From Candidatus Rifleibacterium amylolyticum (GTDB lineage: Bacteria > Muiribacteriota > Ozemobacteria > Ozemobacterales > Ozemobacteraceae), in the NCBI GenBank assembly GCA_009917695.1, contig JAACJG010000011.1, positions 92,997 through 156,996 on the forward strand: a DNA stretch of 64,000 bases. Direction: 5' to 3'. A model generated the notes under the pieces. That model searched no databases. It saw nothing but the letters and a program-made list of their open reading frames with translations, and was not told the origin of the DNA. The translations under genes and the position numbers were made by a program. How positions within the stretch are numbered: the stretch's first letter is position 1; the number at the start of each line of letters is the position of its first letter. Of this stretch, positions 6,375 to 27,585 are shown in pieces.

Positions 6375-7121
6375 TTAATACATGACTTTCATCAGATAAA
6401 GTCCGCCGGGCGGTGCAGGGGCGCCAAGCCTTCGTCTATTCTGATTACGGTACAGTTCTTCGATTTCCGCCACCCGCATTTCGCCGTTGCCCACCAGATA
6501 TAACGCCCTTGCCATATTGCGAACCATGTTATGCATAAAACCGGTTCCGATTACGTCAAAGGTGATTACTTCGTGTTCAAGGCTGACGCTGGTTTCGATA
6601 ATCTTCCTAACGGTGCTCTCATACTGGCGCGGGGATTTTGCAAAAGCAGCAAAGTCGTGTTCGCCGATGAATTCGCGTGCCGCCGCCTGCATTTTTTCGA
6701 TATCGGGAGACTTGTTTAGCTGCCAGAAGAACCTTTCGAGGAAAGGCGAAGCAGTTTTGACCAGTCGGAAAAGATATCGGTAGTGCTTGCCGCGGGCGGA
6801 AAAACAAGGATGGAAGCTCTCGTCTGCTTCTTCTGCCCTGCTTACCCTTACTGCCCCAGGTAGAGCGCCGTTCATTCCTATGATTAACTTTTCAACCGGA
6901 ATCGGACACTCAGTTCTGATAAGAACCACCTGTTCAACCGCATGAACCCCGGTGTCTGTCCGACCCGCCCCGACTGCCCGGCATTTTTCACCGGTGATCA
7001 GCTTGATTACTCTTTCGAGCTCACCCTGAACTGTTGGTATATGCGGCTGGTATTGCCAGCCGAAAAATGCGCTACCGTCGTAGGTAACAAACAGTTTAAG
7101 ATATCTCGTAGTCATTGTCAA
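6375..7121 (-). CDS. truA: tRNA pseudouridine38-40 synthase
   Basis: A 248-aa protein with YDGSAFFGWQ and GAGRTDTGVHA, including the catalytic Asp. Confidence 0.85.
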   Translation of the reverse strand: MTMTTRYLKLFVTYDGSAFFGWQYQPHIPTVQGELERVIKLITGEKCRAVGAGRTDTGVHAVEQVVLIRTECPIPVEKLIIGMNGALPGAVRVSRAEEADESFHPCFSARGKHYRYLFRLVKTASPFLERFFWQLNKSPDIEKMQAAAREFIGEHDFAAFAKSPRQYESTVRKIIETSVSLEHEVITFDVIGTGFMHNMVRNMARALYLVGNGEMRVAEIEELYRNQNRRRLGAPAPPGGLYLMKVMY

Positions 7122-7577: not shown

Positions 7578-7680
7578 GATCCTACCTCTCATTTTGTTAG
7601 ATCTAAAGACAATTATACACAAAGCTTCTTGAAAATCAAAGCATATTGCGCGAAAATCAGAACCGAAATATTAATGCGGA

Positions 7681-8775
7681 GTGACTATGAACCAATCTAT
7701 GATCAATCTGATACCGGGACCGGTAAGTGTGCCCGAAGAGGTGCTGCGCGCGGCGCATCATGATTTTGGCTCGCCCGATCTCGACGAGAATTTTCTCGAG
7801 CTGTATAACCAGACTGAAAAGCGTTTGCAGACAATTCTGGGCACCAGAAATTCGGTCATTATCCAGACCGGCGAAGGCATGCTCGGCCTCTGGGGCGCAC
7901 TCAAAAGCTGCCTGAAGCCGGGAGACCGCGTAGTCGCAGTTTGCACCGGCGTTTTCGGCTATGGCATCGCCGACATGGCCGAGATGATCGGAGCTGAAGT
8001 CAGGCGCCTCGCCCTGCCCTACGACCAGACTTTTGCCGCCAGTGAAGAACTCGAAAAAATCGTGGCCGAATTCAAACCACTGATGATCACTGCCGTTCAC
8101 TGCGAAACGCCTTCGGGCACGCTGAACCCGCTTGGCGAAATTGCGCGTATAAAAAAGGAACATGCCGTGCCGCTGCTATGCGTCGATACCGTTGCCAGCG
8201 CCGGCGGTTGCCCGGTCGAGGCCGACCGCAATCTTATCGATCTCTGCTTGAATGGCAGCCAGAAATGCCTGTCAGCGCCGCCGAACATGACTTTCGTCGG
8301 TATCAGCGAAGCCGCCTGGGAAATCATCGACCGCGTAAATTACGTTGGCTATGATGCCTTTAAGCCATTTCGCAACGCTCAGGCCGAATTTTACTTTCCC
8401 AATACCATGTACTGGCACGGCATCGCGGCATTGCATGCTGCTGCCGGCCTGATTCTCGACGAAGTGCTCGACAAAGTTTATCAGCGCCACACCGCTGCAA
8501 TGGAATACTGCATAGAACGGTGCAGGCAGATGGGACTCGAACTTTATGCCTCGTCAGACGCCGTTAAGGCGCCAACTGTAACTGCTCTCAAAGTGCCTGA
8601 ACAGTATGGTTGGAAACACCTGCAGCAGGCCTGTCGCATGAGCGGCCTCGCCATCGCCGGTAGCTATGGCAAACTTGCCGGAAAAGTCATGCGCATAGGC
8701 CATATGGGCACCCAGGCAAATATCGGTCTGCTCGCGCGCGGCCTCGAAGTTCTCGAAAAAGTGCTGCGACCGTGA
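7681..8775 (+). CDS. class V (AGXT/PhnW-like) pyridoxal-phosphate aminotransferase
   Basis: A 364-aa protein with N-terminal ..LIPGPVSVPEEVL.., typical of serine-pyruvate and alanine-glyoxylate type transaminases. GGAG lies 7 nt upstream. Confidence 0.75.
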   Translation: MTMNQSMINLIPGPVSVPEEVLRAAHHDFGSPDLDENFLELYNQTEKRLQTILGTRNSVIIQTGEGMLGLWGALKSCLKPGDRVVAVCTGVFGYGIADMAEMIGAEVRRLALPYDQTFAASEELEKIVAEFKPLMITAVHCETPSGTLNPLGEIARIKKEHAVPLLCVDTVASAGGCPVEADRNLIDLCLNGSQKCLSAPPNMTFVGISEAAWEIIDRVNYVGYDAFKPFRNAQAEFYFPNTMYWHGIAALHAAAGLILDEVLDKVYQRHTAAMEYCIERCRQMGLELYASSDAVKAPTVTALKVPEQYGWKHLQQACRMSGLAIAGSYGKLAGKVMRIGHMGTQANIGLLARGLEVLEKVLRP

Positions 8776-9863
8776 CGAAAATAACTGTTGGCGCTTACTA
8801 TTATCCAGGCTGGCACCCCTGCTCGATTCGCGATGCTGCCTTCCCGAAAGGCTGGAGCGAATGGGATCTGCTCAAAAACTGTGCACCTCGCTTCGAAGGC
8901 CACGACCAGCCAAAAACGCCCTTGTGGGGTTACGAAAACGAGGCCGATCCGGAGGTTTTCGACAAGAAACTGCAGGCAGCGCAAGCTTATGGCATCGACT
9001 TTTTTGTCTTCGCGAACTACTGGTCGCGCGGCAGGCGGCTGCTTGAAGGCGCGCTCGATCGAGGTCTGATGCAGGCGAAAAGTCGTGGCAAAACAAGGTT
9101 TGCGCTAATGTGGGCAAACCGCATGCCGCGCAAGGTCATGCCGGTAAAAGACGCAGCCGCCCGCCTGATCGACCCGTCGCGTCTGGTCTACACCGATCCG
9201 GCCGATTTTCTAGAATATGTCAGTTACATCGCCGGCAGATATTTCGTTCAGCCCGATTATTACCGGGTTAACGATGCCTGCTATCTCAGCATATTCGATA
9301 CCGCATTTTTCATTCGGCAGCTTGGCCCGGAAGCAACGACAAAAGCAATAAACGAGGTCCGCGCATATCTCGCCGAACGCTCTTTGAAGCTTCATCTGGC
9401 TGCAATAGACCCGATTCCCGAACATCGGCCGCTGCTCAGGCAGATCGGTTTCGACAGCGTTACCCATTATGTTTTTCTGCCTGACTGGAGCGGCCCATAC
9501 CATCAGGATTTCAGCGAATGCGCGAAGATGAAGGCTGCCAGATGGCATGATTATCAGCCCGAAACCGGCCTGCCCTATGTTCCTTCAGTTACCCCAAACT
9601 GGGATGCCAGCCCGCGCGCGGCCGATTATGGAAAGGAAAAGCCGGGAAAGTATCCCTGGTCGCCGGTGCTTACCGGCTGCAGCCCGGATAAATTCGCAGA
9701 GTTTCTCAGCCTGGCGAAGAGCTTTGCTGTTGAGCATTCGCAGTTTGTCGAACCGACCATCATGATTTCATCCTGGAATGAATGGACAGAAGGTCACTAT
9801 CTCGAGCCTGACAAAAAGCACGGCTACGCCTGGCTGGAAGCAGTAAGATCGGTGCACGGCTGA
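8772..9863 (+). CDS. glycoside hydrolase family 99-like / WbsX-family protein
   Basis: YYYPGWHP..GWSEWDLL..RFEGHDQPKTPLWGYENEADPEV..YGIDFFVFANYWSRGRRLLE matches the WbsX/GH99-like N-terminal signature. Its start overlaps the upstream stop by 4 nt. Confidence 0.65.
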   Translation: MTKITVGAYYYPGWHPCSIRDAAFPKGWSEWDLLKNCAPRFEGHDQPKTPLWGYENEADPEVFDKKLQAAQAYGIDFFVFANYWSRGRRLLEGALDRGLMQAKSRGKTRFALMWANRMPRKVMPVKDAAARLIDPSRLVYTDPADFLEYVSYIAGRYFVQPDYYRVNDACYLSIFDTAFFIRQLGPEATTKAINEVRAYLAERSLKLHLAAIDPIPEHRPLLRQIGFDSVTHYVFLPDWSGPYHQDFSECAKMKAARWHDYQPETGLPYVPSVTPNWDASPRAADYGKEKPGKYPWSPVLTGCSPDKFAEFLSLAKSFAVEHSQFVEPTIMISSWNEWTEGHYLEPDKKHGYAWLEAVRSVHG

Positions 9864-10765
9864 TGGATAAGAGATGGCCGTTCTTTACTGTCGATATCGA
9901 GCTGACGAATCTCTGCGAGCAGAACTGCCGTTTCTGCCCGCGTGAGAGGCTGACGCGGCCGGCCGGCTTTATCGACACGCAACTGCTGCAGAACATCATG
10001 CGCCAGCTCGCCGCAATCGGCTCACGCGTGACCTTTTGCGGTATGGGCAATCCTCTGCTGCACCCGCAATGGGCTGAGATATGCACTATCTGTCATGCCA
10101 GCGGAGTTAAGTATGGTCTGACGATTCAGGCCCCGGCTCTCACCGAAGCCAATGTTAATAAAATCTGCGAACTTGAACCGTCGTTTATCGAGGTTTCGTT
10201 GCTAAGTATTGATTCCGGGCACTTTGCCAGAATATACCCTGGCGAGAATTTTGCCAACTCTCTGAGTTTATTGAACCGGCTGGTTGCTGCGCGCGGTTCA
10301 TCGCGTGGAATCAGCATAACAGCAGTAAGAACCGCCGACGACCCGGCCGAACCGGCAGAGACTCTTGCCTTCTGGCAGCAGCAGGGATTGCCGGTCAGAA
10401 TACAGCAATGTCACTCGCGCGGTGGCAACCTGCACGGACAGGCAACGACAGAACCGCGCTGTATAGCCAGTTGTGTGCTCTTTGCAACGCACTCATTCAT
10501 CACCTGGCAGGGCATTCTGCTCGCCTGTTGCCACGATCTCACCGGCGCCACTGCTGTTGCCGATCTCAGGCAACTCTCGCTCGACCAGGCCGCCGCCGCT
10601 AAAATCGAAATTCTGCAAAAGCCAATGCCCTGGCCGATATGCGCGAACTGTGACGAGCCGGCGGCAATCCGCCCCCTCCCCGATCGCCCTTTCCCCGAAA
10701 CAGAAAAAGCGCGAAGCCGCTATTTAAAAAGACTCTGTGCGAAGCCGCAGGATCTCACGGATTGA
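9863..10765 (+). CDS. radical SAM protein with C-terminal Cys-rich (SPASM/twitch-like) auxiliary-cluster domain
   Basis: CEQNCRFC is a CX3CX2C motif and FCGMGNPLL is the glycine-rich SAM-binding motif. Several additional Cys residues cluster at the C-terminus. The gene start overlaps the stop of the upstream gene. Confidence 0.75.
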   Translation: MDKRWPFFTVDIELTNLCEQNCRFCPRERLTRPAGFIDTQLLQNIMRQLAAIGSRVTFCGMGNPLLHPQWAEICTICHASGVKYGLTIQAPALTEANVNKICELEPSFIEVSLLSIDSGHFARIYPGENFANSLSLLNRLVAARGSSRGISITAVRTADDPAEPAETLAFWQQQGLPVRIQQCHSRGGNLHGQATTEPRCIASCVLFATHSFITWQGILLACCHDLTGATAVADLRQLSLDQAAAAKIEILQKPMPWPICANCDEPAAIRPLPDRPFPETEKARSRYLKRLCAKPQDLTD

Positions 10766-10768
10766 GAT

Positions 10769-11641
10769 TTACTTCAGTTCGCCCAGCTCTTTTGCCATTT
10801 CTTCGAGCGCGCGGGTCAGTTCGATGCGATGCTCCTGATCGAGGGTTTTTGCCTCTTGGAGCACCCTGCTGGCTTCGTCATATGCTTTGCTGGCGGCCTC
10901 ACGATCCTTGAGCTTAAGCTGCAGACGACAGCGCAAAAAGCTGGTTTCGAGCTGGTAGTCGCTGCTCACTGAATCTAGCCAGCCAAGAGCCATTTCGTAG
11001 TTGCCCTGGCGCATGTGCATGTTCGCCAGCGCAAAGGCGGGTGCCGTGTCAGTCGGATCGACGGCCAGACACTCGCTCAGGGCCATTTCGGCTTCGAGAA
11101 AGCGTTCGAGCTTGCTGAGCACGGTGCCCTTGTTGAAAAGCGCTGAACGTCTGACATGCTCATTGTGGGCAAGCGTATGCGCCTGCTCGAAAGCGCTCAG
11201 AGCCTGCTCATTTTCATCAAGAGCCAGATACATGTTGCCGAGGGCAAGATATGCCTCGGGGAACTGTGCTTTGAGCTCAACAGCCTTGAGATGGGCGTTG
11301 ATTGCTTCAGCAAATTTGTTGTTGAAACCCAGCGCCAGACCGAAATTATACATGGCCTCAGGCGACTCTGGATTCTCAACGACGGCGCGGCCGAGAATAG
11401 CTTCGGCTTCGCCCGTTTCTCCGGCGGCGAGTAACCTGGCGCCTTCATTTACCAGCGCCAGCGAGCCAAGGCTGCCGGGGTCGATGGTTGCCGGAGCAGC
11501 CGGTGCAGCCTGGTCGGCGCGCGGTTTTGCCGGAACCGGCAGGATCTCTTGAGCATATAGCATAGGGCTGGCCGTAAGTCCGATACAGGCAACAGATGTA
11601 AGAAAAAGATTTCGAATCTGGCTTTTAGCGGTATTTTTCAT
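10769..11641 (-). CDS. secreted TPR-repeat protein
   Basis: A signal peptide is followed by repeated 34-aa TPR-like units (..EAYLALGNMYL.., ..AMYNFGLAL..). Confidence 0.65.
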   Translation of the reverse strand: MKNTAKSQIRNLFLTSVACIGLTASPMLYAQEILPVPAKPRADQAAPAAPATIDPGSLGSLALVNEGARLLAAGETGEAEAILGRAVVENPESPEAMYNFGLALGFNNKFAEAINAHLKAVELKAQFPEAYLALGNMYLALDENEQALSAFEQAHTLAHNEHVRRSALFNKGTVLSKLERFLEAEMALSECLAVDPTDTAPAFALANMHMRQGNYEMALGWLDSVSSDYQLETSFLRCRLQLKLKDREAASKAYDEASRVLQEAKTLDQEHRIELTRALEEMAKELGELK

Positions 11642-11655
11642 GGTTAAAGCCTGTT

Positions 11656-12858
11656 TCAGTTAAGTTTGCCGGTCACAGATGTGATTATTACTGGAGTCCC
11701 CACTTTAACAAGCGAGAAGAGCTCTTCGGCGTCGGCAGTGAACATGCGTACGCAGCCGGCCGAGGCTTTTGAACCGATCGATGACGGAGCCGAGGTTCCG
11801 TGCATTCCGATGCTGCCGCCCCAGCCCGCGCTCAGTCCCATCCAGCGGGTGCCAAGCGGATTGTTTGCTGCCCCACCCGGAATATTCTTGTATTGCGGAT
11901 TTACCGCTTTGTTGACTATGCTAAAAGCGCCTTGTGGAGTGCGCTTGTCACCGACCTTCTGCTTGTTGGCGCCGTCTGGGTTGGCACCATAGGCAATCGG
12001 GTAAATTCTTACGACCTTCCCGTTCGAATAAACGGTCGAGGTGAAATTGGCTTTGTTGATCACGATTTTGTCGATTACAGCGGGATTGCTGCGCACTTTC
12101 TTAACTTCGTCAGAGCCCTTGGCAAGCAGACTGTAGATGCCGTATTTTGCCCTGAATTCACGCAGAGCAGTCTGAGTGTCAGCATGGTTGAGGCCTTTTG
12201 TCGGCACCAGTTTAGTATAGGCATTGTAAGCAATCATGAAATCCTGTTGAGCATGTTCAACCAGTTTGGGTTCTGAGCGTTCAATCATCTTTTCGCCGCT
12301 GATCAAAGCGATCTGAATCCAGCCATCCTTTTCGCCAAGCACCGGAAAGGTTCTTCCGATAGTGCTTGTTGAAACGATAGAATGACTGGTTGAGGGCCCG
12401 GATCTGAGGTTAACTTTGTCGAGTATAACCATGGCAACCTTGCCGACCTGTACACACATGTCGTTGCGCAGCCATGCTGACGGCTGTTTGCTGTCATCGA
12501 CATCGGCAACCACCATGCTGATGTTGTGCCATCCGGACTGAGATTTGATTACCGGAAAACGGTCACCGCGGCGCACCTGATCAAGAATTTCATAGCTGAG
12601 TCCCGGGCCTGACCTGACGTTGACCGTTCCCTGGGTGATGCTCAGCTGGCCCTTATCGACAACGCCCATGTCACCACGCACCCAGCCAGTCGGCTTTGCT
12701 GCAGCGGTTGCCGCAGTAATATTGGTTCTGCTGCTTCCAGAAGTCGTCGCCGGAACATTATCGACCTCAAATATCGACTGCGCCGATGAAATGAATGGCA
12801 TAACCAGCAGGATGGCGAACATCAGCCAGCTCGCGGTTCTCATGAAATTCTTTCTCAT
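11656..12858 (-). CDS. L,D-transpeptidase with two bacterial SH3 (SH3b) domains
   Basis: It has a signal peptide and two SH3b-like segments (VNVRSGPGLSYEIL.., VNLRSGPSTSHSIV..). The C-terminal YkuD motif HGT..SAGCVRM carries the catalytic Cys. Confidence 0.75.
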   Translation of the reverse strand: MRKNFMRTASWLMFAILLVMPFISSAQSIFEVDNVPATTSGSSRTNITAATAAAKPTGWVRGDMGVVDKGQLSITQGTVNVRSGPGLSYEILDQVRRGDRFPVIKSQSGWHNISMVVADVDDSKQPSAWLRNDMCVQVGKVAMVILDKVNLRSGPSTSHSIVSTSTIGRTFPVLGEKDGWIQIALISGEKMIERSEPKLVEHAQQDFMIAYNAYTKLVPTKGLNHADTQTALREFRAKYGIYSLLAKGSDEVKKVRSNPAVIDKIVINKANFTSTVYSNGKVVRIYPIAYGANPDGANKQKVGDKRTPQGAFSIVNKAVNPQYKNIPGGAANNPLGTRWMGLSAGWGGSIGMHGTSAPSSIGSKASAGCVRMFTADAEELFSLVKVGTPVIITSVTGKLN

Positions 12859-12952: not shown

Positions 12953-13546
12953 TTAATCGTTGGAGATAATTCGGAGCAGCTGTTGGCGGAGTTTGCCAAT
13001 GTTCTTGCTTATGGCCTGTGGAAAGGGCAAAACGAATGCCTGCTCGGCTGTGTCGCTGACGAAGCGGATTACGGCGCCGTTTAGCCCCCTGCCCTGCATG
13101 GCTTCGGCGAAAAAGAAGCTTTCCATATCGACCAGGCTGGCGTTGTATTTTACGGCCAGCTGTGCGCGTTCGTCTCTGGTGCTTGCCGGCTGATCAACGG
13201 TTAAAATTGCTGCCGGCGGCAGGTCTGGCAGAGTCGGCAGCTCAAGCTGGCGGCCGACGTAAAAAAGCTTGTTGCAACAGAACAACTGACCGATCTGCAG
13301 TTCTGGCGCGAGCGCTCCGGCTGCGCCAAATAGGATTATGCGTCGATAGCTGGCCTGTGCCAGTTCGCGGTCTAGCAGCGCAAGCAAAGGAGCGCCGCCG
13401 GCGGCATTGGCAGTCGCCAGTCTGCCGCCTTTAAAAGACCAGCTAGCGGCGTCTGACTGCCGGCAATCTGGCAGGATAGCGGCCAGCAGCCTGGCTTCGG
13501 CTTTGAACGGCGCCAAAATGAGAGTCTGCGGGTCTGTAGGGCTCAT
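12953..13546 (-). CDS. PNP_UDP_1-family nucleosidase (MTA/SAH or 5'-deoxyadenosine nucleosidase / futalosine-hydrolase-like)
   Basis: A 197-aa protein. ..IILFGAAGALAPELQIGQL.., VDMESFF.., and AVIRFVSDTAEQ align with the E. coli MtnN blocks IINTGSAGGLAP, VEMEA, and VVRAISDVADQ. Its start overlaps the upstream gene by 4 nt. Confidence 0.65.
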   Translation of the reverse strand: MSPTDPQTLILAPFKAEARLLAAILPDCRQSDAASWSFKGGRLATANAAGGAPLLALLDRELAQASYRRIILFGAAGALAPELQIGQLFCCNKLFYVGRQLELPTLPDLPPAAILTVDQPASTRDERAQLAVKYNASLVDMESFFFAEAMQGRGLNGAVIRFVSDTAEQAFVLPFPQAISKNIGKLRQQLLRIISND

Positions 13547-14592
13547 TTCTGCAGACTCTGGTCAAGCATTTTTTTGAGGTCAGCGCTGCCGAAATCAGTG
13601 TTTTTGAGGCGTTCCCAGACTTCGGGGGTTTCCATGCACATGTAGACCGGCACGTCGGCAAAATATTTCTGCAGACCGGCGCGCGCAAAATTGTATATCT
13701 GCTCGCGGAAGGGTCTGAAATACCTGATCTTGCCGTCAGTCGAAGGGTAAAATTCTTCGGCGAGAATTCCGGTGTCGGGGTGATACTTTTCGACGTATTC
13801 CTGAAAGCCCTTCGGAAAGCGGAAAGTGCCCAGGGAAATCCAGTTGATCTTAAGTCCGTGCAGATATTCGTGCATGAGTTCGAATACTTCTGTGTAGAGG
13901 ATCTGCCAGTTCTGCAGCGGCAGAAGCGGGTCAAAATGAAACGCCAGCGCGCAGCCTTTTGCACGGGCAGCCGTTGCTGCTGCGTTCAGGCGCTCGCGCA
14001 GCGAGGCCGCGCCATGTTCGAGGCGGTCGATATATTCCTGCGGATTCAGCGAAAAGGCCAGAGTCACATGGCGTGCATCTTTTGCCTGCATTATTGCCGT
14101 TATATCAGCACTTTTGCTCTTAACTTCGAGTGTAAAATCGGGCATTCCGGCGGTCCATCCGATAATTGAGGCGTTGAGCGGAAAAATTCCTTCAAGCGCG
14201 AGCGGGTCGCCGAACTGACCGGTGCCAAGTCTGATTGGCCCGCTGATGCGTTCGCGCAGCTCGAGTATTTCGCGGCGGCAGTCATCCCAGTTCAGAAAAA
14301 GAGTTATGTCGCCGGCGCCGGTGTAGTTCTGAATTATGCAGTATTCGCACTCGAACGGGCAGCCCATCCCCCACTCCACTACCCAGTAACCGCAGCAGAC
14401 GCTGCCTTTCTGACCCGGGCAGGGTTTTACAAACGCCCCGCGATTGAGCGTGAGCAGCAGACCATCACCGGGATGCTGCTCGCCGCTGACTTCATGGCGC
14501 TTGTCAAATTCAATCTGGCTCTCGATCTGTTTCGCCAGCCGCAGATCCTTGACCCGCTCATCAACATAGAGGTTTCTGAAACAAAGAGTCAT
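13543..14592 (-). CDS. spore-photoproduct-lyase-family radical SAM enzyme (SplB-like, COG1533)
   Basis: GMGCPFECEYC aligns to the SPL cluster motif GCMGHCHYC (CX3CX2C), and the 349-aa size fits. The gene lies 2 nt downstream of the ParB-like gene. Confidence 0.7.
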   Translation of the reverse strand: MTLCFRNLYVDERVKDLRLAKQIESQIEFDKRHEVSGEQHPGDGLLLTLNRGAFVKPCPGQKGSVCCGYWVVEWGMGCPFECEYCIIQNYTGAGDITLFLNWDDCRREILELRERISGPIRLGTGQFGDPLALEGIFPLNASIIGWTAGMPDFTLEVKSKSADITAIMQAKDARHVTLAFSLNPQEYIDRLEHGAASLRERLNAAATAARAKGCALAFHFDPLLPLQNWQILYTEVFELMHEYLHGLKINWISLGTFRFPKGFQEYVEKYHPDTGILAEEFYPSTDGKIRYFRPFREQIYNFARAGLQKYFADVPVYMCMETPEVWERLKNTDFGSADLKKMLDQSLQK

Positions 14593-14594
14593 TG

Positions 14595-15425
14595 TTATAA
14601 CTCTTCTACAGCTGCGAAAATTGCATCGACAGCGGCCTGTGCTTCGGTCAGGCGGCCGCTGTGACGGCGGGTCAGATTGCAGGTCAGCTGCATGCCAGGT
14701 TTGGAGAAGGTTTCATCGATCTTTATGCTTATGCCCGGTGGCAGCGGGTTCTGTTCGAGCGCCCGCGCAAATTTGTCGAGCGCATCAGTTCTGCGAGGTT
14801 GCGCCAGACGCTGCAGGTTTTCGAGTGCTTCAGCAGCATTGCTGCCAGGCAGCTTCTCTGGTAGCACGTTCTTTCGCTGGGCCTGGCGCAGAAACATGGC
14901 GATGTTGCGCTTTTCTGAAACCGTACCGGGCATAGACAGCAGATCGCCGGCAAAGCGTTGCATGTCGTCGCCGAGGTGTCCAAGTTCGCGCCAGATGTTG
15001 AGCGGCAACTGCTGCTCAGGCGGGTTGCTCCGGTTTTTTGCATTTTCAGCAATGTATTTAAGAGCCAGCCGCAGTTGCGGCGAATCGGCGCAGCGTGCCA
15101 GCCTAAGGAAATCTGCCTGATCTTCAGAGTGGCAGTCCGAATAGGCGACCGCCAGTTCAGTTGCGCCCAGTTCGCGATGGCCGTTCAACTGTGCAAAGAG
15201 CTGTGCTGGTGATCCGGCAGCTTCAATGCAGGGTGCGCTGCTATGCCCGAGCAGTTTGAAAGCAGCCAGCCGGCGGTGCCCGTCGCAGACCCGGCTCTGG
15301 CTGACAACCAGAGGCTGCATAATGCCATTCTCACTGATGCTGCGAACAAGATTATCATCCGGTGCCGGCGTGATTTCGCCGAGCAGCGGCTTCAGATCGG
15401 TTATCTGCATTTCAATTATTTTCAT
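14595..15425 (-). CDS. ParB N-terminal (ParB/Srx-fold) domain protein
   Basis: The N-terminus ..ITDLKP..NLVRSISENGIMQPLVV..DGHRRLAAFKLLG carries the ParB GxRR box. It is followed by a helical C-terminal region of unknown function. Confidence 0.65.
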   Translation of the reverse strand: MKIIEMQITDLKPLLGEITPAPDDNLVRSISENGIMQPLVVSQSRVCDGHRRLAAFKLLGHSSAPCIEAAGSPAQLFAQLNGHRELGATELAVAYSDCHSEDQADFLRLARCADSPQLRLALKYIAENAKNRSNPPEQQLPLNIWRELGHLGDDMQRFAGDLLSMPGTVSEKRNIAMFLRQAQRKNVLPEKLPGSNAAEALENLQRLAQPRRTDALDKFARALEQNPLPPGISIKIDETFSKPGMQLTCNLTRRHSGRLTEAQAAVDAIFAAVEEL

Positions 15426-24549: not shown

Positions 24550-27500
24550 TCAGGTAAACGAGCCGTATGCGTGGTCGATCTCGACTTCGCCAGATTCAAG
24601 AACTATCGAATCTTCTATATTCTGATAGACGAGGAAGATGCCCTGCCGTCCGTCCATCACAACGCCAAGCTTGTGCGGCAGCCGGGTGTGAGTGAAATAT
24701 TTCTGGCGCTTGATTACAGGCTGACTGCGCAGCCAGTTCCAGTCGATAAAGCCTTCTCCTGAATCCTGGCGCACTGAGAAATAACCGATACCCATTGTGG
24801 TAACATTGTGAAAGAAGTGTGACCCCATCGAGGCATCGACGCGAAAGCCTTCGAGCGAGTATTCAACTATAACCTTGGCAAAGGAAGTCTGTGGCCAGGT
24901 TACCGGAATACCCAGCCAGCGATCTCGCGTGCCCCAGCGACCCGGGCCGAGCAGAATATATCTGCGGCCAGATTCCTTGAGCTCAAGATTGAAGGCCTCT
25001 ACTTCGCGTGCCATTTCTTCAGTCTGTGACTTGTCGAAAAGATCGGGGTCGATCCAGACGATATCGCTGATCTCATCGATACGCCCGTTGCCCATGCCCG
25101 AATCAGCATAGAGCATGAGCTTGCTTCGGTCGATACTGGCTTTGTCGATGTTGTAGTCTTCGCTTTCACGCAGCATGTGCTTGAGCTGCAATAGATAAAA
25201 CACCGGCTTGTCCAGATTATCAGCATCAACATCTACGGCAAATTCAATTTCTACCGGAGTTTCAAGGGCTTCTTCGGAGACGTTGAGTATGTGTTTGATC
25301 GTTCTGGCGAGTGGCATGGATTCATACTGAAGGATATTGGCAAAGTTGATGACACGCGGACCGCGGGTGTCGGTGCCGACTTCCAGCCTCTGGTCGAGAT
25401 GATTCCAGGTTGAAGCGACCTCCTGTAATGTTCCATCGGCATCTGCAACCGAAATATCGTGTTTGACCAGGGTGGCATCTTCGCCATTGAACAGATCGAC
25501 CGTGTTCTTTTCGAGATCGAGCACGGTAAAACGGCGCTGTGAGTTTTTGACCAGTTCCTCGGGTGTCAGAATCTCAAGTTGCGGATATGTCGGGCAGAAT
25601 CTGAACGAGCGCTCGCCACCGACAACATTGCGACCCAGGCCGAGAACCAGCATGCCAACTCCATCTTCGGGCTGAATGTATGAGAACGGGTAATAGTTGT
25701 ATGACTGCCCAACCCCTGAAATCAGCGGATAAAAGTTGTGGCCATGTTTGCGACCAACTATCTGCTGAATGACCACTGCCATCTTTTCTTCTTCAATGTT
25801 GTAATTAATGGCATCGAAGTATTCGCGCGCTTCCTTTGAATAAACCGATGCGTAAACAAGCTTGATCGCTTCCTCAAGCTGGCGCAGACGCACTTCTGAG
25901 TCCGGGTGATTGTTTGGCACGAAAAAGGTCTCATACAAACCCGACATCGAATGCGACACCGAGTCTTCAAGCACCCCGGAAGAGCGCACTGCCAGCGGGT
26001 ATGTCACCTTCTGCAACACGATTCGCAGCCGGTTGAGTATTTTCTCTGACAGGCGACTTTCGACGAAGCGGCGCTTTATCGTTGCGTAATCACGCTCAGA
26101 CGAAACAAAATCAGCCAGATCATTGGTGGTAATGAAATTGGTGAATTCATCTACTCCGATGATGAAGGTCTCAGGAATACGGATGACAATGTCAGATACC
26201 GATTCGAGCATGGATGAATTGTAAAGCAGATAGTTCATGAAGGCGATGCCGCGACCCTTACCGCCGATGGCGCCTTCGGCCAGTTTGCAGATATGATGAC
26301 GGTTGTCGCCAATGAATGACTTGTCGAACGAAATGACCTTGCCGCGGGTCTTCATTCTGAAAACCCAGTTGCCCATGTTGATGAGAAAATCGCGCAGCGA
26401 CTCAACTTCATCGAATTCGGCTACGTGAATACGTGAGACAACCTTGGCGATCTGAACTTCTCCGCGCGCCAGCAACCAGGTTGAAAAATTGTTGCGGCTG
26501 GCATGATACTCGATCGACTCGGCCGGCACTATGCGCAGACAGTTGCGAAAATCACTCATGGTGCGAGCCCGGGTGATTTCCTGACCATGTGCGTTTCTGA
26601 AGACGAAGTCGCCAAAACCGAGATTGCGATAGAAAAACTTTGAGAGGCGCTTGGAAAGAAACTGCGATTCTTTGTGCACGAACGCGGCCCCGAGACGGTT
26701 CGCAGCTGATTCGATCTCAGGCTCTGACGACTGAAGCAGAACCGGAAGATCGGGAGAAAGTTCCTTGAGTTTTTTAGCCAGTTTCAGACCCGCTTTGTCG
26801 TCGAGAACACCGTCTTTCTTGTATTTAACGTCAGAAATGACACACAACAGGTAATCCTCGAAGTGTTCATATTGCTGCATTGCTTCTTCATAACTGGTTG
26901 CCAGAATGATCTTGGGCCGACAGCGCATGCGCAGAACTTTTTTTGTTTCTTCCTGAAGCTCTTCTTCGACCAGCTTCGTTGTTTGCCTGATCAGTTCTGA
27001 ATATAGATGCGGCAGATAGCGCGAATAATATCGTATCGAGTCTTCGACAAGCAGAATAATGCGAACCTGTGCAATTGCCGTATCTTTGTCGGCATTACGG
27101 CGGTCTTCAATGTATTTGATCATTGCCAGAAAGATCTCAGAGTTGCCGTTCCAGACGAAGACATTGTCGTAATGGAGCCAGAGATCGCTGCGCGTGTCGA
27201 GAGCTTCCAGATCAGTGTTGTCATTGAGAAGCAGCAGAACAGGAAGATCGGGCCAGCGCTCTCTGATTCTTTGACCGCAGTTGATTGTGTCGGCTCGACT
27301 CAGGCGGCTGAGAACAACAACGAGATCGAATTTACGCTTTTCGAGCATTTCGATCGCTTCATCGCCTGATGTGACGCTGCTGATACGCGGGGCGCTGGTA
27401 AGATTCAGACTGAAATATTCACCAAAGATTTTCTCCGCCAGCAGGCCGTCCTGCTCCAGGGAAAAGGCGTCGAAAATGGTTGCGACCAGCAACAGTTCGC

Positions 27501-27585
27501 GGACCTTGAAGCGCATCAGGTCATGAAAAATTTCACTGTCAGATTTGAATTTTTTAAAGACCTGCATGAGTTCGTCGTTGTGCAT
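24550..27585 (-). CDS. multidomain protein: two N-terminal receiver-like (REC) domains plus a PEP/pyruvate-binding domain of the PEP-synthase/PPDK family, with a long C-terminal extension
   Basis: ..IILLVEDS.. and ..LCVISDVK.. mark a REC phospho-acceptor. ..YPLAVRSSGVLEDSVSHSMSGLYETFFV.. matches the PPDK/PpsA nucleotide-binding domain. The protein is 1011 aa. Confidence 0.7.
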   Translation of the reverse strand: MHNDELMQVFKKFKSDSEIFHDLMRFKVRELLLVATIFDAFSLEQDGLLAEKIFGEYFSLNLTSAPRISSVTSGDEAIEMLEKRKFDLVVVLSRLSRADTINCGQRIRERWPDLPVLLLLNDNTDLEALDTRSDLWLHYDNVFVWNGNSEIFLAMIKYIEDRRNADKDTAIAQVRIILLVEDSIRYYSRYLPHLYSELIRQTTKLVEEELQEETKKVLRMRCRPKIILATSYEEAMQQYEHFEDYLLCVISDVKYKKDGVLDDKAGLKLAKKLKELSPDLPVLLQSSEPEIESAANRLGAAFVHKESQFLSKRLSKFFYRNLGFGDFVFRNAHGQEITRARTMSDFRNCLRIVPAESIEYHASRNNFSTWLLARGEVQIAKVVSRIHVAEFDEVESLRDFLINMGNWVFRMKTRGKVISFDKSFIGDNRHHICKLAEGAIGGKGRGIAFMNYLLYNSSMLESVSDIVIRIPETFIIGVDEFTNFITTNDLADFVSSERDYATIKRRFVESRLSEKILNRLRIVLQKVTYPLAVRSSGVLEDSVSHSMSGLYETFFVPNNHPDSEVRLRQLEEAIKLVYASVYSKEAREYFDAINYNIEEEKMAVVIQQIVGRKHGHNFYPLISGVGQSYNYYPFSYIQPEDGVGMLVLGLGRNVVGGERSFRFCPTYPQLEILTPEELVKNSQRRFTVLDLEKNTVDLFNGEDATLVKHDISVADADGTLQEVASTWNHLDQRLEVGTDTRGPRVINFANILQYESMPLARTIKHILNVSEEALETPVEIEFAVDVDADNLDKPVFYLLQLKHMLRESEDYNIDKASIDRSKLMLYADSGMGNGRIDEISDIVWIDPDLFDKSQTEEMAREVEAFNLELKESGRRYILLGPGRWGTRDRWLGIPVTWPQTSFAKVIVEYSLEGFRVDASMGSHFFHNVTTMGIGYFSVRQDSGEGFIDWNWLRSQPVIKRQKYFTHTRLPHKLGVVMDGRQGIFLVYQNIEDSIVLESGEVEIDHAYGSFT

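Follow-up and report, generated by a model that had tools for sequence, protein, structure and literature searches.

A WbsX-like GH99-fold enzyme and a BtrN-like twitch radical SAM enzyme form a conserved gene pair with a possible role in carbohydrate modification

Which genes of a tightly overlapping cluster belong together, and on what kind of substrate might their products act? The question is raised by a locus of Candidatus Rifleibacterium amylolyticum (assembly GCA_009917695.1, contig JAACJG010000011.1), analyzed here within a stretch of 64,000 nucleotides (contig positions 92,997 to 156,996, forward strand) that is called the window in the following. Three co-directional open reading frames (ORFs) on its plus strand (Table 1) code for a class-V aminotransferase, a WbsX-like protein with similarity to glycoside hydrolase family 99 (GH99), and a radical S-adenosylmethionine (SAM) enzyme. 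An earlier note, made from the sequence, had read these genes as one tightly coupled operon, and both junctions bear this out. Between the first two genes, the sequence ccGTGAcg combines a GTG start codon at 8772 with a TGA stop codon at 8773-8775, which gives a 4-base overlap, and between the second and the third gene the sequence cTGATGg joins a TGA at 9861-9863 to an ATG at 9863-9865 with an overlap of 1 base. A scan for terminator-like hairpins returned none at either junction and none at the 3' end of the radical SAM gene, the sole match on the plus strand (7745-7757) lying within the aminotransferase gene. The domain assignments for the three proteins hold as well, all of them scoring well above their Pfam cut-offs.

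A profile of the radical SAM protein was run against one genome per species and one built on the WbsX-like protein against metagenomes, and the ORFs of all loci retrieved were then classified with phmmer. In about 97 loci, distributed over at least four phyla (Riflebacteria, anammox Planctomycetota, Desulfobacterota and Myxococcota), a WbsX-like gene lies immediately upstream of a gene for a radical SAM enzyme of the twitch type, and in 89 of the 97 the radical SAM gene starts inside the end of the WbsX-like gene, overlaps of 11 or 8 nucleotides being the commonest. Carriers of the pair are Riflebacteria/Ozemobacter, Brocadiales (Scalindua, Kuenenia and Anammoxibacter), Desulfobulbales/Desulfocapsaceae and other Thermodesulfobacteriota, Sandaracinaceae, and unclassified metagenome-assembled genomes (MAGs). 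Outside the Riflebacteria the genes around the pair differ from lineage to lineage, and because of these unrelated surroundings the pair can be regarded as a self-contained cassette. Linkage of the aminotransferase gene to the WbsX-like gene was seen in 22 loci, all of the Riflebacteria type and with radical SAM proteins down to 46% identity. Three Desulfobacterota-type loci (L044, L062 and L068) have in this slot, immediately before the WbsX-like gene, a gene for a classical short-chain dehydrogenase/reductase (SDR), the operon order there being spore photoproduct lyase (SPL)-like radical SAM, SDR, WbsX-like and twitch radical SAM gene, and in most lineages the slot holds neither an aminotransferase nor an SDR gene. 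These results show that the conserved unit is the pair of WbsX-like and radical SAM genes and not the trio that the earlier note had proposed, to which the aminotransferase belongs in one Riflebacteria clade only.

In the Scalindua-type loci (L003, L004, L005 and about 20 other Brocadiales loci), the opposite strand carries, downstream of the pair, a conserved gene for a 173-residue protein without a family match. Next come a gene for a DeoC-family aldolase of the LsrF/ADH-synthase type (351 bits, above the NF006081 cut-off) and, in L004 and L005, for which gene calls are available, a gene for a Zn-dependent alcohol dehydrogenase. These downstream genes may reflect lineage synteny only.

The first half of the pair, the WbsX-like protein, matches PF14307 (Glyco_tran_WbsX) with 150.8 bits against a cut-off of 25.1 and covers model positions 3-350 of 350. 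PF14307 is a large family, for which no biochemically characterized member was found in the literature. When the AlphaFold2 (AF2) model of the protein (pLDDT 89.5) was compared with known structures by Foldseek, the top match was BtGH99 (4ad0, E 4.5e-15, TM 0.61-0.68), and human MANEA and BxGH99 came next. In the alignment of the profile to proteins of the PDB, the invariant motif S-x-N-E337-W-x-E340-G-H falls on the GH99 segment 'SFNEWHEG' of BtGH99 and BxGH99. The catalytic glutamates of BxGH99 are known from the PDB titles of its E333Q and E336Q variants, and as E337 and E340 align with them, the catalytic pair is kept in the WbsX-like protein. Structure comparison and alignment together thus assign to it a GH99 fold with the E-W-x-E glutamate pair, although it does not belong to the GH99 sequence family: identity is 14-16%, PF16317 does not match the window protein, and it appears only as a secondary precomputed match in a few WbsX-like relatives. 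With both glutamates of the endo-alpha-mannosidases kept, the WbsX-like enzyme probably cleaves or transfers a glycosidic bond. No signal peptide is visible in the WbsX-like or the radical SAM protein, and the former is predicted on this ground to be cytoplasmic. The many arginines that are invariant in its clade (R20, R86, R117, R120, R137 and R282) suggest an anionic substrate.

Members of the WbsX-like clade from different phyla are 45-60% identical, alignment columns averaging about 60% identity, and the clade is therefore under strong constraint. Proteins paired with a radical SAM enzyme fall into a clade apart from that of the unpaired ones. At position 17, 93% of the paired proteins have Cys but 78% of the unpaired ones Ile, position 85 is Ser in 96% of the paired but Cys in 96% of the unpaired proteins, and paired proteins have Trp28, Gln183 and Trp335 where unpaired ones have Phe28, Glu183 and Leu335. 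As judged from the topology of TIM barrels, residues 17 and 85 would lie just after beta1 and beta2, the strands flanking beta8, which carries E337 and E340. The change at these two positions amounts to a cysteine swap between two adjacent loops of the active-site face. The idea that the radical SAM enzyme has been replaced by a non-homologous enzyme in aerobes was rejected, as in three loci without the radical SAM gene the WbsX-like gene is followed by genes that bear no relation to one another.

The second half of the pair, a protein of 300 residues, belongs to the radical SAM superfamily by its PF04055 match (52 bits against a cut-off of 29.5), by the invariant C18-x3-C22-x2-C25 and by the fold of its AF2 model (pLDDT 93). 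An identical protein is present on a 69-kb Logan contig, and among named relatives Candidatus Riflebacteria MAGs come nearest, the radical SAM protein being 88% identical to that of HGW-2. The earlier note had assigned to the enzyme a SPASM or Cys-rich auxiliary domain. A domain for an auxiliary cluster is indeed predicted, but it is a truncated SPASM of the twitch type. Twitch domains consist of the first half of SPASM (CX9-15GX4C) and further cysteines for one cluster only (PMC6231123), and the window protein has C204-x12-G217-x4-C222 followed only by C260-x2-C263. A full SPASM domain has the seven-cysteine motif CX9-15GX4C-gap-CX2CX5CX3C-gap-C for two auxiliary clusters, whereas here CX5CX3C and a final cysteine after C263 are lacking, and Pfam SPASM, which matches weakly in some relatives, does not match the window protein. 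C18, C22, C25, R186-G-G, C204, G217, C222, D225, C260 and C263 are invariant or nearly so in the family, R186 and the four cysteines of the twitch stretch being near-invariant across 233 members, and Cys183 and Cys223 are extra conserved cysteines of the family.

When the family profile was compared with solved proteins, BtrN was the first match (E 2.9e-15), and MoaA and BlsE came next at about 1e-8 (the next value being 1.8e-8). The core and the twitch stretch each match BtrN significantly on their own, and the four auxiliary-cluster cysteines and the R-G-G motif of BtrN align to C204, C222, C260, C263 and R186. BtrN was also the best Foldseek match of the model (E 3.3e-11). No curated BtrN model matches the window protein. 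Anaerobic sulfatase-maturating enzyme (anSME) was not reached at E 0.01 in the family-profile search, and no NCBIfam model assigns the protein to anSME/AtsB; the earlier note had named a grouping with such maturases as a reason to give up its reading, and the comparison leads to BtrN instead. By its likeness in sequence and in the predicted structure, the enzyme may be a dehydrogenase of the BtrN type.

A link to sugars emerges from the wider radical SAM family, for which a full-library search with the family profile gave 763 clusters (50% identity) at E <= 1e-30. Among the best 150 matches, fusions were found to glycosyltransferase (GT) domains (GT1/GT4, an EryCIII-like GT, two GT2 domains, and GT41 together with TPR) and to an FkbM methyltransferase. 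Homologues from Chloroflexota, 27-29% identical, are encoded between genes for RmlD, a Wzt ABC ATPase with a glycan-binding C-domain, and GT1. More distant homologues on plasmids are encoded between an acetyltransferase and a DegT aminotransferase (Lawsonia), with a DegT aminotransferase directly ahead and a methyltransferase and WbqC following (Solidesulfovibrio), and within a DegT/GNAT/heptose cluster (Roseibium); no WbsX homologues occur near the radical SAM relatives in the four plasmid loci examined. Because BtrN is the closest solved relative, and because of the GT and FkbM fusions and the RmlD/Wzt/GT1 and DegT neighbours, a sugar or glycan is the best-supported substrate. This part of the earlier proposal of glycan tailoring can be retained, whereas its example, a cell-surface polysaccharide, finds no counterpart in the surroundings: nothing nearby in the window suggests such a cluster, glycan-assembly or export machinery is absent, and no acetyltransferase, nucleotidyltransferase or export genes stand alongside the trio.

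The aminotransferase of the window matches PF00266 (Aminotran_5) with 56.8 bits (cut-off 21.5, E 2.5e-15). Its best match in the PDB is 2z9u (E 1.8e-44), AGXT and SPT structures follow at about 1e-41, and the lysine that binds pyridoxal phosphate (PLP) is present, 'GSQKCLSAPP' being aligned to 'GPNKCLGAPP' of 2z9u. On account of the PF00266 score and the PLP lysine, it is a class-V aminotransferase of the AGXT subgroup, of the AGXT or pyridoxamine-pyruvate type. The earlier note had described it as serine-pyruvate/PhnW-like; the cut-off for PhnW is not reached (129 against 361 bits, and 112 against 401). The NCBIfam equivalogs for pyridoxamine-pyruvate transaminase (212 against 600 bits) and BhcA (143 against 650 bits) are likewise missed. 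PF01041, the family of DegT/DnrJ/EryC1 sugar aminotransferases, does not match the window protein and shows up only as a minor precomputed match in two distant relatives. The true start of the gene is probably the ATG at 7687, with GGAG at 7678-7681, in agreement with the public gene call. In Desulfonema ishimotonii (L172, 6001-8966), a 59% identical orthologue is followed by a single fusion protein, in which a GFO/IDH/MocA domain like that of UDP-GlcNAc 3-dehydrogenase is joined to an acetyltransferase domain of the NeuD/PglB/VioB type. This neighbour suggests that the AGXT-type family to which the aminotransferase belongs can serve in the synthesis of acetamido sugars.

We propose, at a probability of about 0.45 and by analogy to BtrN, that the locus may be a cytoplasmic carbohydrate-modifying module, in which a GH99-fold WbsX-like enzyme works with a BtrN-like twitch radical SAM enzyme that oxidizes in the manner of BtrN, amination or reduction following thereafter. 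BtrN is a radical SAM dehydrogenase with a twitch domain (PMC10337720), and its single auxiliary cluster is fully ligated by cysteines and has been proposed to oxidize the radical intermediate (PMC6231123). In the window enzyme, the cluster bound by C18, C22 and C25 would cleave SAM, and the 5'-deoxyadenosyl radical would remove the hydrogen at a carbinol carbon in a sugar or cyclitol unit. The hydroxyl group would then be deprotonated, R186 and D225 being candidate residues (for BtrN, we take Arg152 to be a substrate-contacting residue or base), and the auxiliary cluster at C204, C222, C260 and C263 might accept the electron, so that a keto-sugar would be formed without O2 or NAD+. In the Riflebacteria clade the carbonyl could be aminated by the class-V aminotransferase to give an amino sugar, and in some Desulfobacterota an SDR might act on it to give a reduced or epimerized sugar. 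The GH99-like partner would supply or consume the glycoside, by cleavage or by transfer.

Several observations weigh against this proposal. The radical SAM protein is only about 17-18% identical to BtrN, most pairs are solitary, with unrelated surroundings and no glycan genes close by, and about one third of the close WbsX-like orthologues have no adjacent radical SAM gene. Other points concern the amination step, as no pair outside the Riflebacteria has the aminotransferase, a deeper 'Riflebacteria' MAG carries the pair without it, and it is not a sugar aminotransferase of the DegT type. Furthermore, solitary orthologues with 56-61% identity occur in Desulfobacterales, Anaerolineaceae and Omnitrophica amid unrelated genes, and since they are so widespread the aminotransferase may be a co-transcribed housekeeping enzyme. 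In that case the trio would not be a functional unit: an AGXT/COG0075 housekeeping enzyme of central amino-acid metabolism would, in one Riflebacteria clade, merely happen to have a promoter in common with the pair, and only the pair would cooperate. The position of the operon beside the housekeeping genes truA-rplM-rpsI fits this explanation too, as does an aminotransferase class that is not the usual one for sugars. However, the linkage, with its 4-nucleotide overlap or near-abutting ends, is kept across the Riflebacteria down to the 46% identity given above while the genes downstream are rearranged, the SDR at the same position in Desulfobacterota is another carbonyl-handling enzyme, and the Desulfonema orthologue adjoins the fusion of sugar 3-dehydrogenase-like and acetyltransferase domains, and we consider a mere bystander role less likely than not. 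A different relation between the two conserved proteins is unlikely, namely that the radical SAM enzyme is a maturase that modifies the WbsX-like protein, by conversion of Ser85 or Cys17 to formylglycine, as AtsB/anSME does on sulfatases, or by a thioether cross-link, for instance at Cys17. A strict two-gene cassette with overlapping stop and start codons and nothing else conserved around it would suit an enzyme and its maturase, the anaerobe bias of the carriers fits, and the weak NCBIfam matches of the radical SAM protein are mostly to predicted maturases. Moreover, Cys17/Ser85 in paired and Ile17/Cys85 in unpaired proteins mirrors the split between Ser-type sulfatases, which depend on a radical SAM enzyme, and Cys-type sulfatases, the sequence S/C85-R-G-K-R is loosely similar to C/S-x-P-x-R, and both residues would be near E337 and E340 if the topology-based placement is right. 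On the other hand, the wider radical SAM family has the same invariant residues, and its fusion partners or neighbours are glycosyltransferases and sugar-nucleotide enzymes, not candidate protein substrates, the sequence profile favours BtrN and not anSME, one auxiliary cluster is predicted where anSME has two, the unpaired clade functions with Ile17, and we know of no GH99-like enzyme that requires a modified residue. Were the WbsX-like protein nevertheless matured in this way, the clade without radical SAM genes would be the variant that is oxygen-tolerant, matured in another way or left unmodified, and enzyme maturation by radical SAM chemistry would be extended to proteins with a glycosidase fold, as a counterpart of the sulfatase/anSME system.

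A further explanation takes in the companion operon on the minus strand (Table 1), which the earlier note had passed over and in which genes for a ParB-like, an SPL-like radical SAM and a PNP_UDP_1-like protein follow one another. It adjoins the trio in every Riflebacteria-type locus with enough flanking sequence, in convergent or co-directional orientation, the PNP-like gene lies beside the trio in nine Riflebacteria loci, and ParB-like and SPL-like genes co-occur in 18 loci. Outside the Riflebacteria, an SPL-like gene goes with the pair in at least eight loci: it is part of the same operon in L044, L062 and L068 and a neighbour of the pair in L028, L058, L097, L100 and L102. In the Desulfobacterota-type loci L044 and L097 a PNP-like gene adjoins the SPL-like gene. 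The companion operon probably belongs to the same pathway as the pair. If the logic of HpnH/HpnG/HpnO or MqnE/MqnB applied, the SPL-like enzyme would add a 5'-deoxyadenosyl radical to a substrate that is unsaturated, the PNP-like enzyme would remove adenine, the resulting ribose-derived aldehyde would be aminated or reduced, and the WbsX-like and twitch radical SAM enzymes would tailor the ribosyl group. For such a pathway speak the constant presence of the SPL-like gene in Riflebacteria-type loci in either orientation, the overlapping operons of the SPL-SDR-WbsX-radical SAM order and the five further loci with an SPL-like neighbour, the PNP_UDP_1 genes beside SPL-like genes in the window, L044 and L097, and the fact that the top-scoring characterized relatives of the aminotransferase act on aldehydes (pyridoxal, and phosphonoacetaldehyde in the case of PhnW). 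The best NCBIfam matches of the PNP-like protein are HpnG (59 against 187 bits) and futalosine hydrolase, but both are below the cut-off, and the SPL-like protein belongs to the Pfam SPL superfamily (57.6 bits, cut-off 27) but not to the spore photoproduct lyase equivalog TIGR04070 (62 against 400 bits). With family scores so far under the cut-offs and with no squalene-hopene cyclase or mqn genes in the window, membership in the hopanoid or futalosine pathway itself was rejected. In addition, only about 8 of the 73 non-Riflebacteria loci have an SPL-like gene within 5 kb and most have neither an SPL-like nor a PNP-like gene, SPL chemistry consists of hydrogen abstraction and repair and not of adenosyl addition, a nucleosidase could merely clear the inhibitory by-product 5'-deoxyadenosine, and the ParB-like protein would have no explained role. 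An adenosyl-adduct pathway is for these reasons quite improbable, and the BtrN-style modification of a carbohydrate is the reading we prefer.

Table 1. Features of the window around the WbsX-like/radical SAM gene pair
Feature	Coordinates	Strand	Evidence or remarks
truA (tRNA pseudouridine synthase)	6375-7121	-	in Riflebacteria, just upstream of and divergent from the operon
Weak sigma-70-like promoter match, TTGAAA-17-GAAAAT	7629-7657	+	consensus only, 9/12 positions
Class-V (AGXT / pyridoxamine-pyruvate type) PLP aminotransferase	7681-8775	+	Pfam PF00266, PDB 2z9u
WbsX-like GH99-fold TIM-barrel enzyme, half of the core pair	8772-9863	+	PF14307, E 8.9e-44
BtrN-like twitch radical SAM enzyme, CX3CX2C and one predicted auxiliary 4Fe-4S site, half of the core pair	9863-10765	+	
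PNP_UDP_1 nucleosidase/phosphorylase-like protein, last gene of companion operon (12953-15425)	12953-13546	-	PF01048, E 3.3e-12
SPL-like radical SAM protein, CPFECEYC motif, companion operon	13543-14592	-	PF20903, E 1.3e-15; SPL 4fhg, E 1.9e-10
ParB N-terminal-domain-like protein, GHRR box, first gene of companion operon	14595-15425	-	PF02195 weak, 22.3 bits against 26.3; Spo0J 6sdk, E 0.036

In L044 (1004-7568, a Thermodesulfobacteriaceae MAG), co-directional genes for a B12-binding radical SAM, a PNP_UDP_1-like, an SPL-like radical SAM, an SDR, a WbsX-like and a twitch radical SAM protein follow one another, so that three radical SAM enzymes are encoded in one cluster, and a gap of about 700 nucleotides without a clear ORF separates the WbsX-like from the twitch radical SAM gene. 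In L028 (4955-6886, a Sandaracinaceae MAG), a gene directly upstream of the pair and overlapping it codes for a 643-residue protein, in which about 390 residues without a Pfam match come before an SPL-like domain (residues 394-591). A defence system made up of ParB-like and radical SAM proteins was also considered and found no support from PADLOC, whose models gave only marginal matches (pVip, E 8e-7 on the radical SAM core; DndA/SspA, E about 1e-4).

The promoter-like match lies in the divergent intergenic region that the operon shares with the truA side. A truA homologue is also found 0.5-3 kb upstream of the WbsX-radical SAM pair in many Scalindua loci (L003, L038, L052, L056, L059, L114, L123 and L140), and its presence beside the pair in two phyla may be a coincidence or a hint of a link to RNA. 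Between the operon of the trio and the companion operon, at 10769-12858 on the minus strand, lie genes for a TPR protein that looks secreted and for an SH3-YkuD L,D-transpeptidase, an insertion confined to the sublineage of the window (the window, L010, L012 and L092). The GC content of the 8-12 kb region is 0.55-0.56, compared with 0.49 just upstream. As the earlier note had stated, there is no plausible ORF for a precursor peptide, since the radical SAM start sits within the WbsX-like stop codon and the 5' leader contains no convincing small ORF; with no intergenic space before the radical SAM gene and with enzymes as neighbours, a peptide made by the ribosome and modified after translation (RiPP) was rejected as the product. 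The remaining window is ordinary chromosome, with truA-rplM-rpsI, a peptide ABC transporter, a prolyl oligopeptidase, thrA/thrC and an amylase, and contains no tRNA and no Rfam features. At 24550-27585 on the minus strand it encodes a protein of 1011 residues that combines a receiver domain of response regulators with a PPDK_N domain (phosphoenolpyruvate-utilizing, ATP-binding).

Each of the proteins belongs to a known superfamily, and the fixed cassette of a GH99-fold enzyme and a twitch radical SAM enzyme appears to be undescribed: no description of such a cassette, and none of a glycan-linked BtrN-like radical SAM family, was found in the searchable literature. The fixed pairing in anammox bacteria, sulfate reducers and Riflebacteria provides a handle on both protein families, and the approximately 760 clusters (50% identity) would make up a glycan-linked family of twitch radical SAM enzymes, in which no characterized member was found. 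The pair points to an oxidation, amination or epimerization of sugars that would depend neither on oxygen nor on NAD in anaerobes. A prediction that lends itself directly to testing is the Cys/Ser swap that separates the paired from the unpaired clade.

The locus shares traits with several known systems. With the sulfatases and AtsB/anSME it has in common that a radical SAM gene stands beside a hydrolase gene, mainly in anaerobes, that close homologues of the hydrolase occur elsewhere without the radical SAM gene, and that a residue on the active-site face is either Ser or Cys. However, sulfatases have an alkaline-phosphatase fold and not the GH99-type TIM barrel predicted here, and C/S-x-P-x-R is missing from the WbsX-like protein. 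Like HpnH/HpnG/HpnO and MqnE/MqnB, the locus joins radical SAM enzymes, a PNP_UDP_1 nucleosidase-like protein and an aminotransferase, but its radical SAM enzymes are of the SPL-like and twitch types and not HpnH or MqnE, and HpnO is a class III aminotransferase whereas that of the window is of class V. The GH99 endo-alpha-1,2-mannosidases and mannanases (BtGH99, BxGH99 and human MANEA) share with the WbsX-like protein the TIM barrel and N-E-W-x-E-G, but they are secreted or Golgi enzymes, whereas the WbsX-like protein has no signal peptide, is coupled to a radical SAM enzyme and falls into a separate Pfam family. The WbpB/WbpE/WbpD route to acetamido sugars also consists of oxidation of a sugar hydroxyl and subsequent transamination, and the Lawsonia and Solidesulfovibrio plasmid homologues of the radical SAM enzyme are encoded beside DegT aminotransferases and acetyl- or methyltransferases; here, the oxidant would be a radical SAM enzyme in place of an NAD-dependent GFO/IDH/MocA protein, and the aminotransferase is not of the DegT type. 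BtrN is the 2-deoxy-scyllo-inosamine dehydrogenase of butirosin biosynthesis (PDB 4m7t and 4m7s). Its chains of 269-270 residues are similar in size to the 300 residues of the window enzyme, both have an N-terminal CX3CX2C, one C-terminal auxiliary cluster (predicted for the window enzyme) and R-G-G before the twitch hairpin, and in the BtrN pathway the ketone product is transaminated. They differ in the extra Cys183 and Cys223 of the window family and in their partners, which for BtrN are 2-deoxy-scyllo-inosose synthase and a DegT-type aminotransferase and for the window enzyme a GH99-like protein and a class-V aminotransferase.

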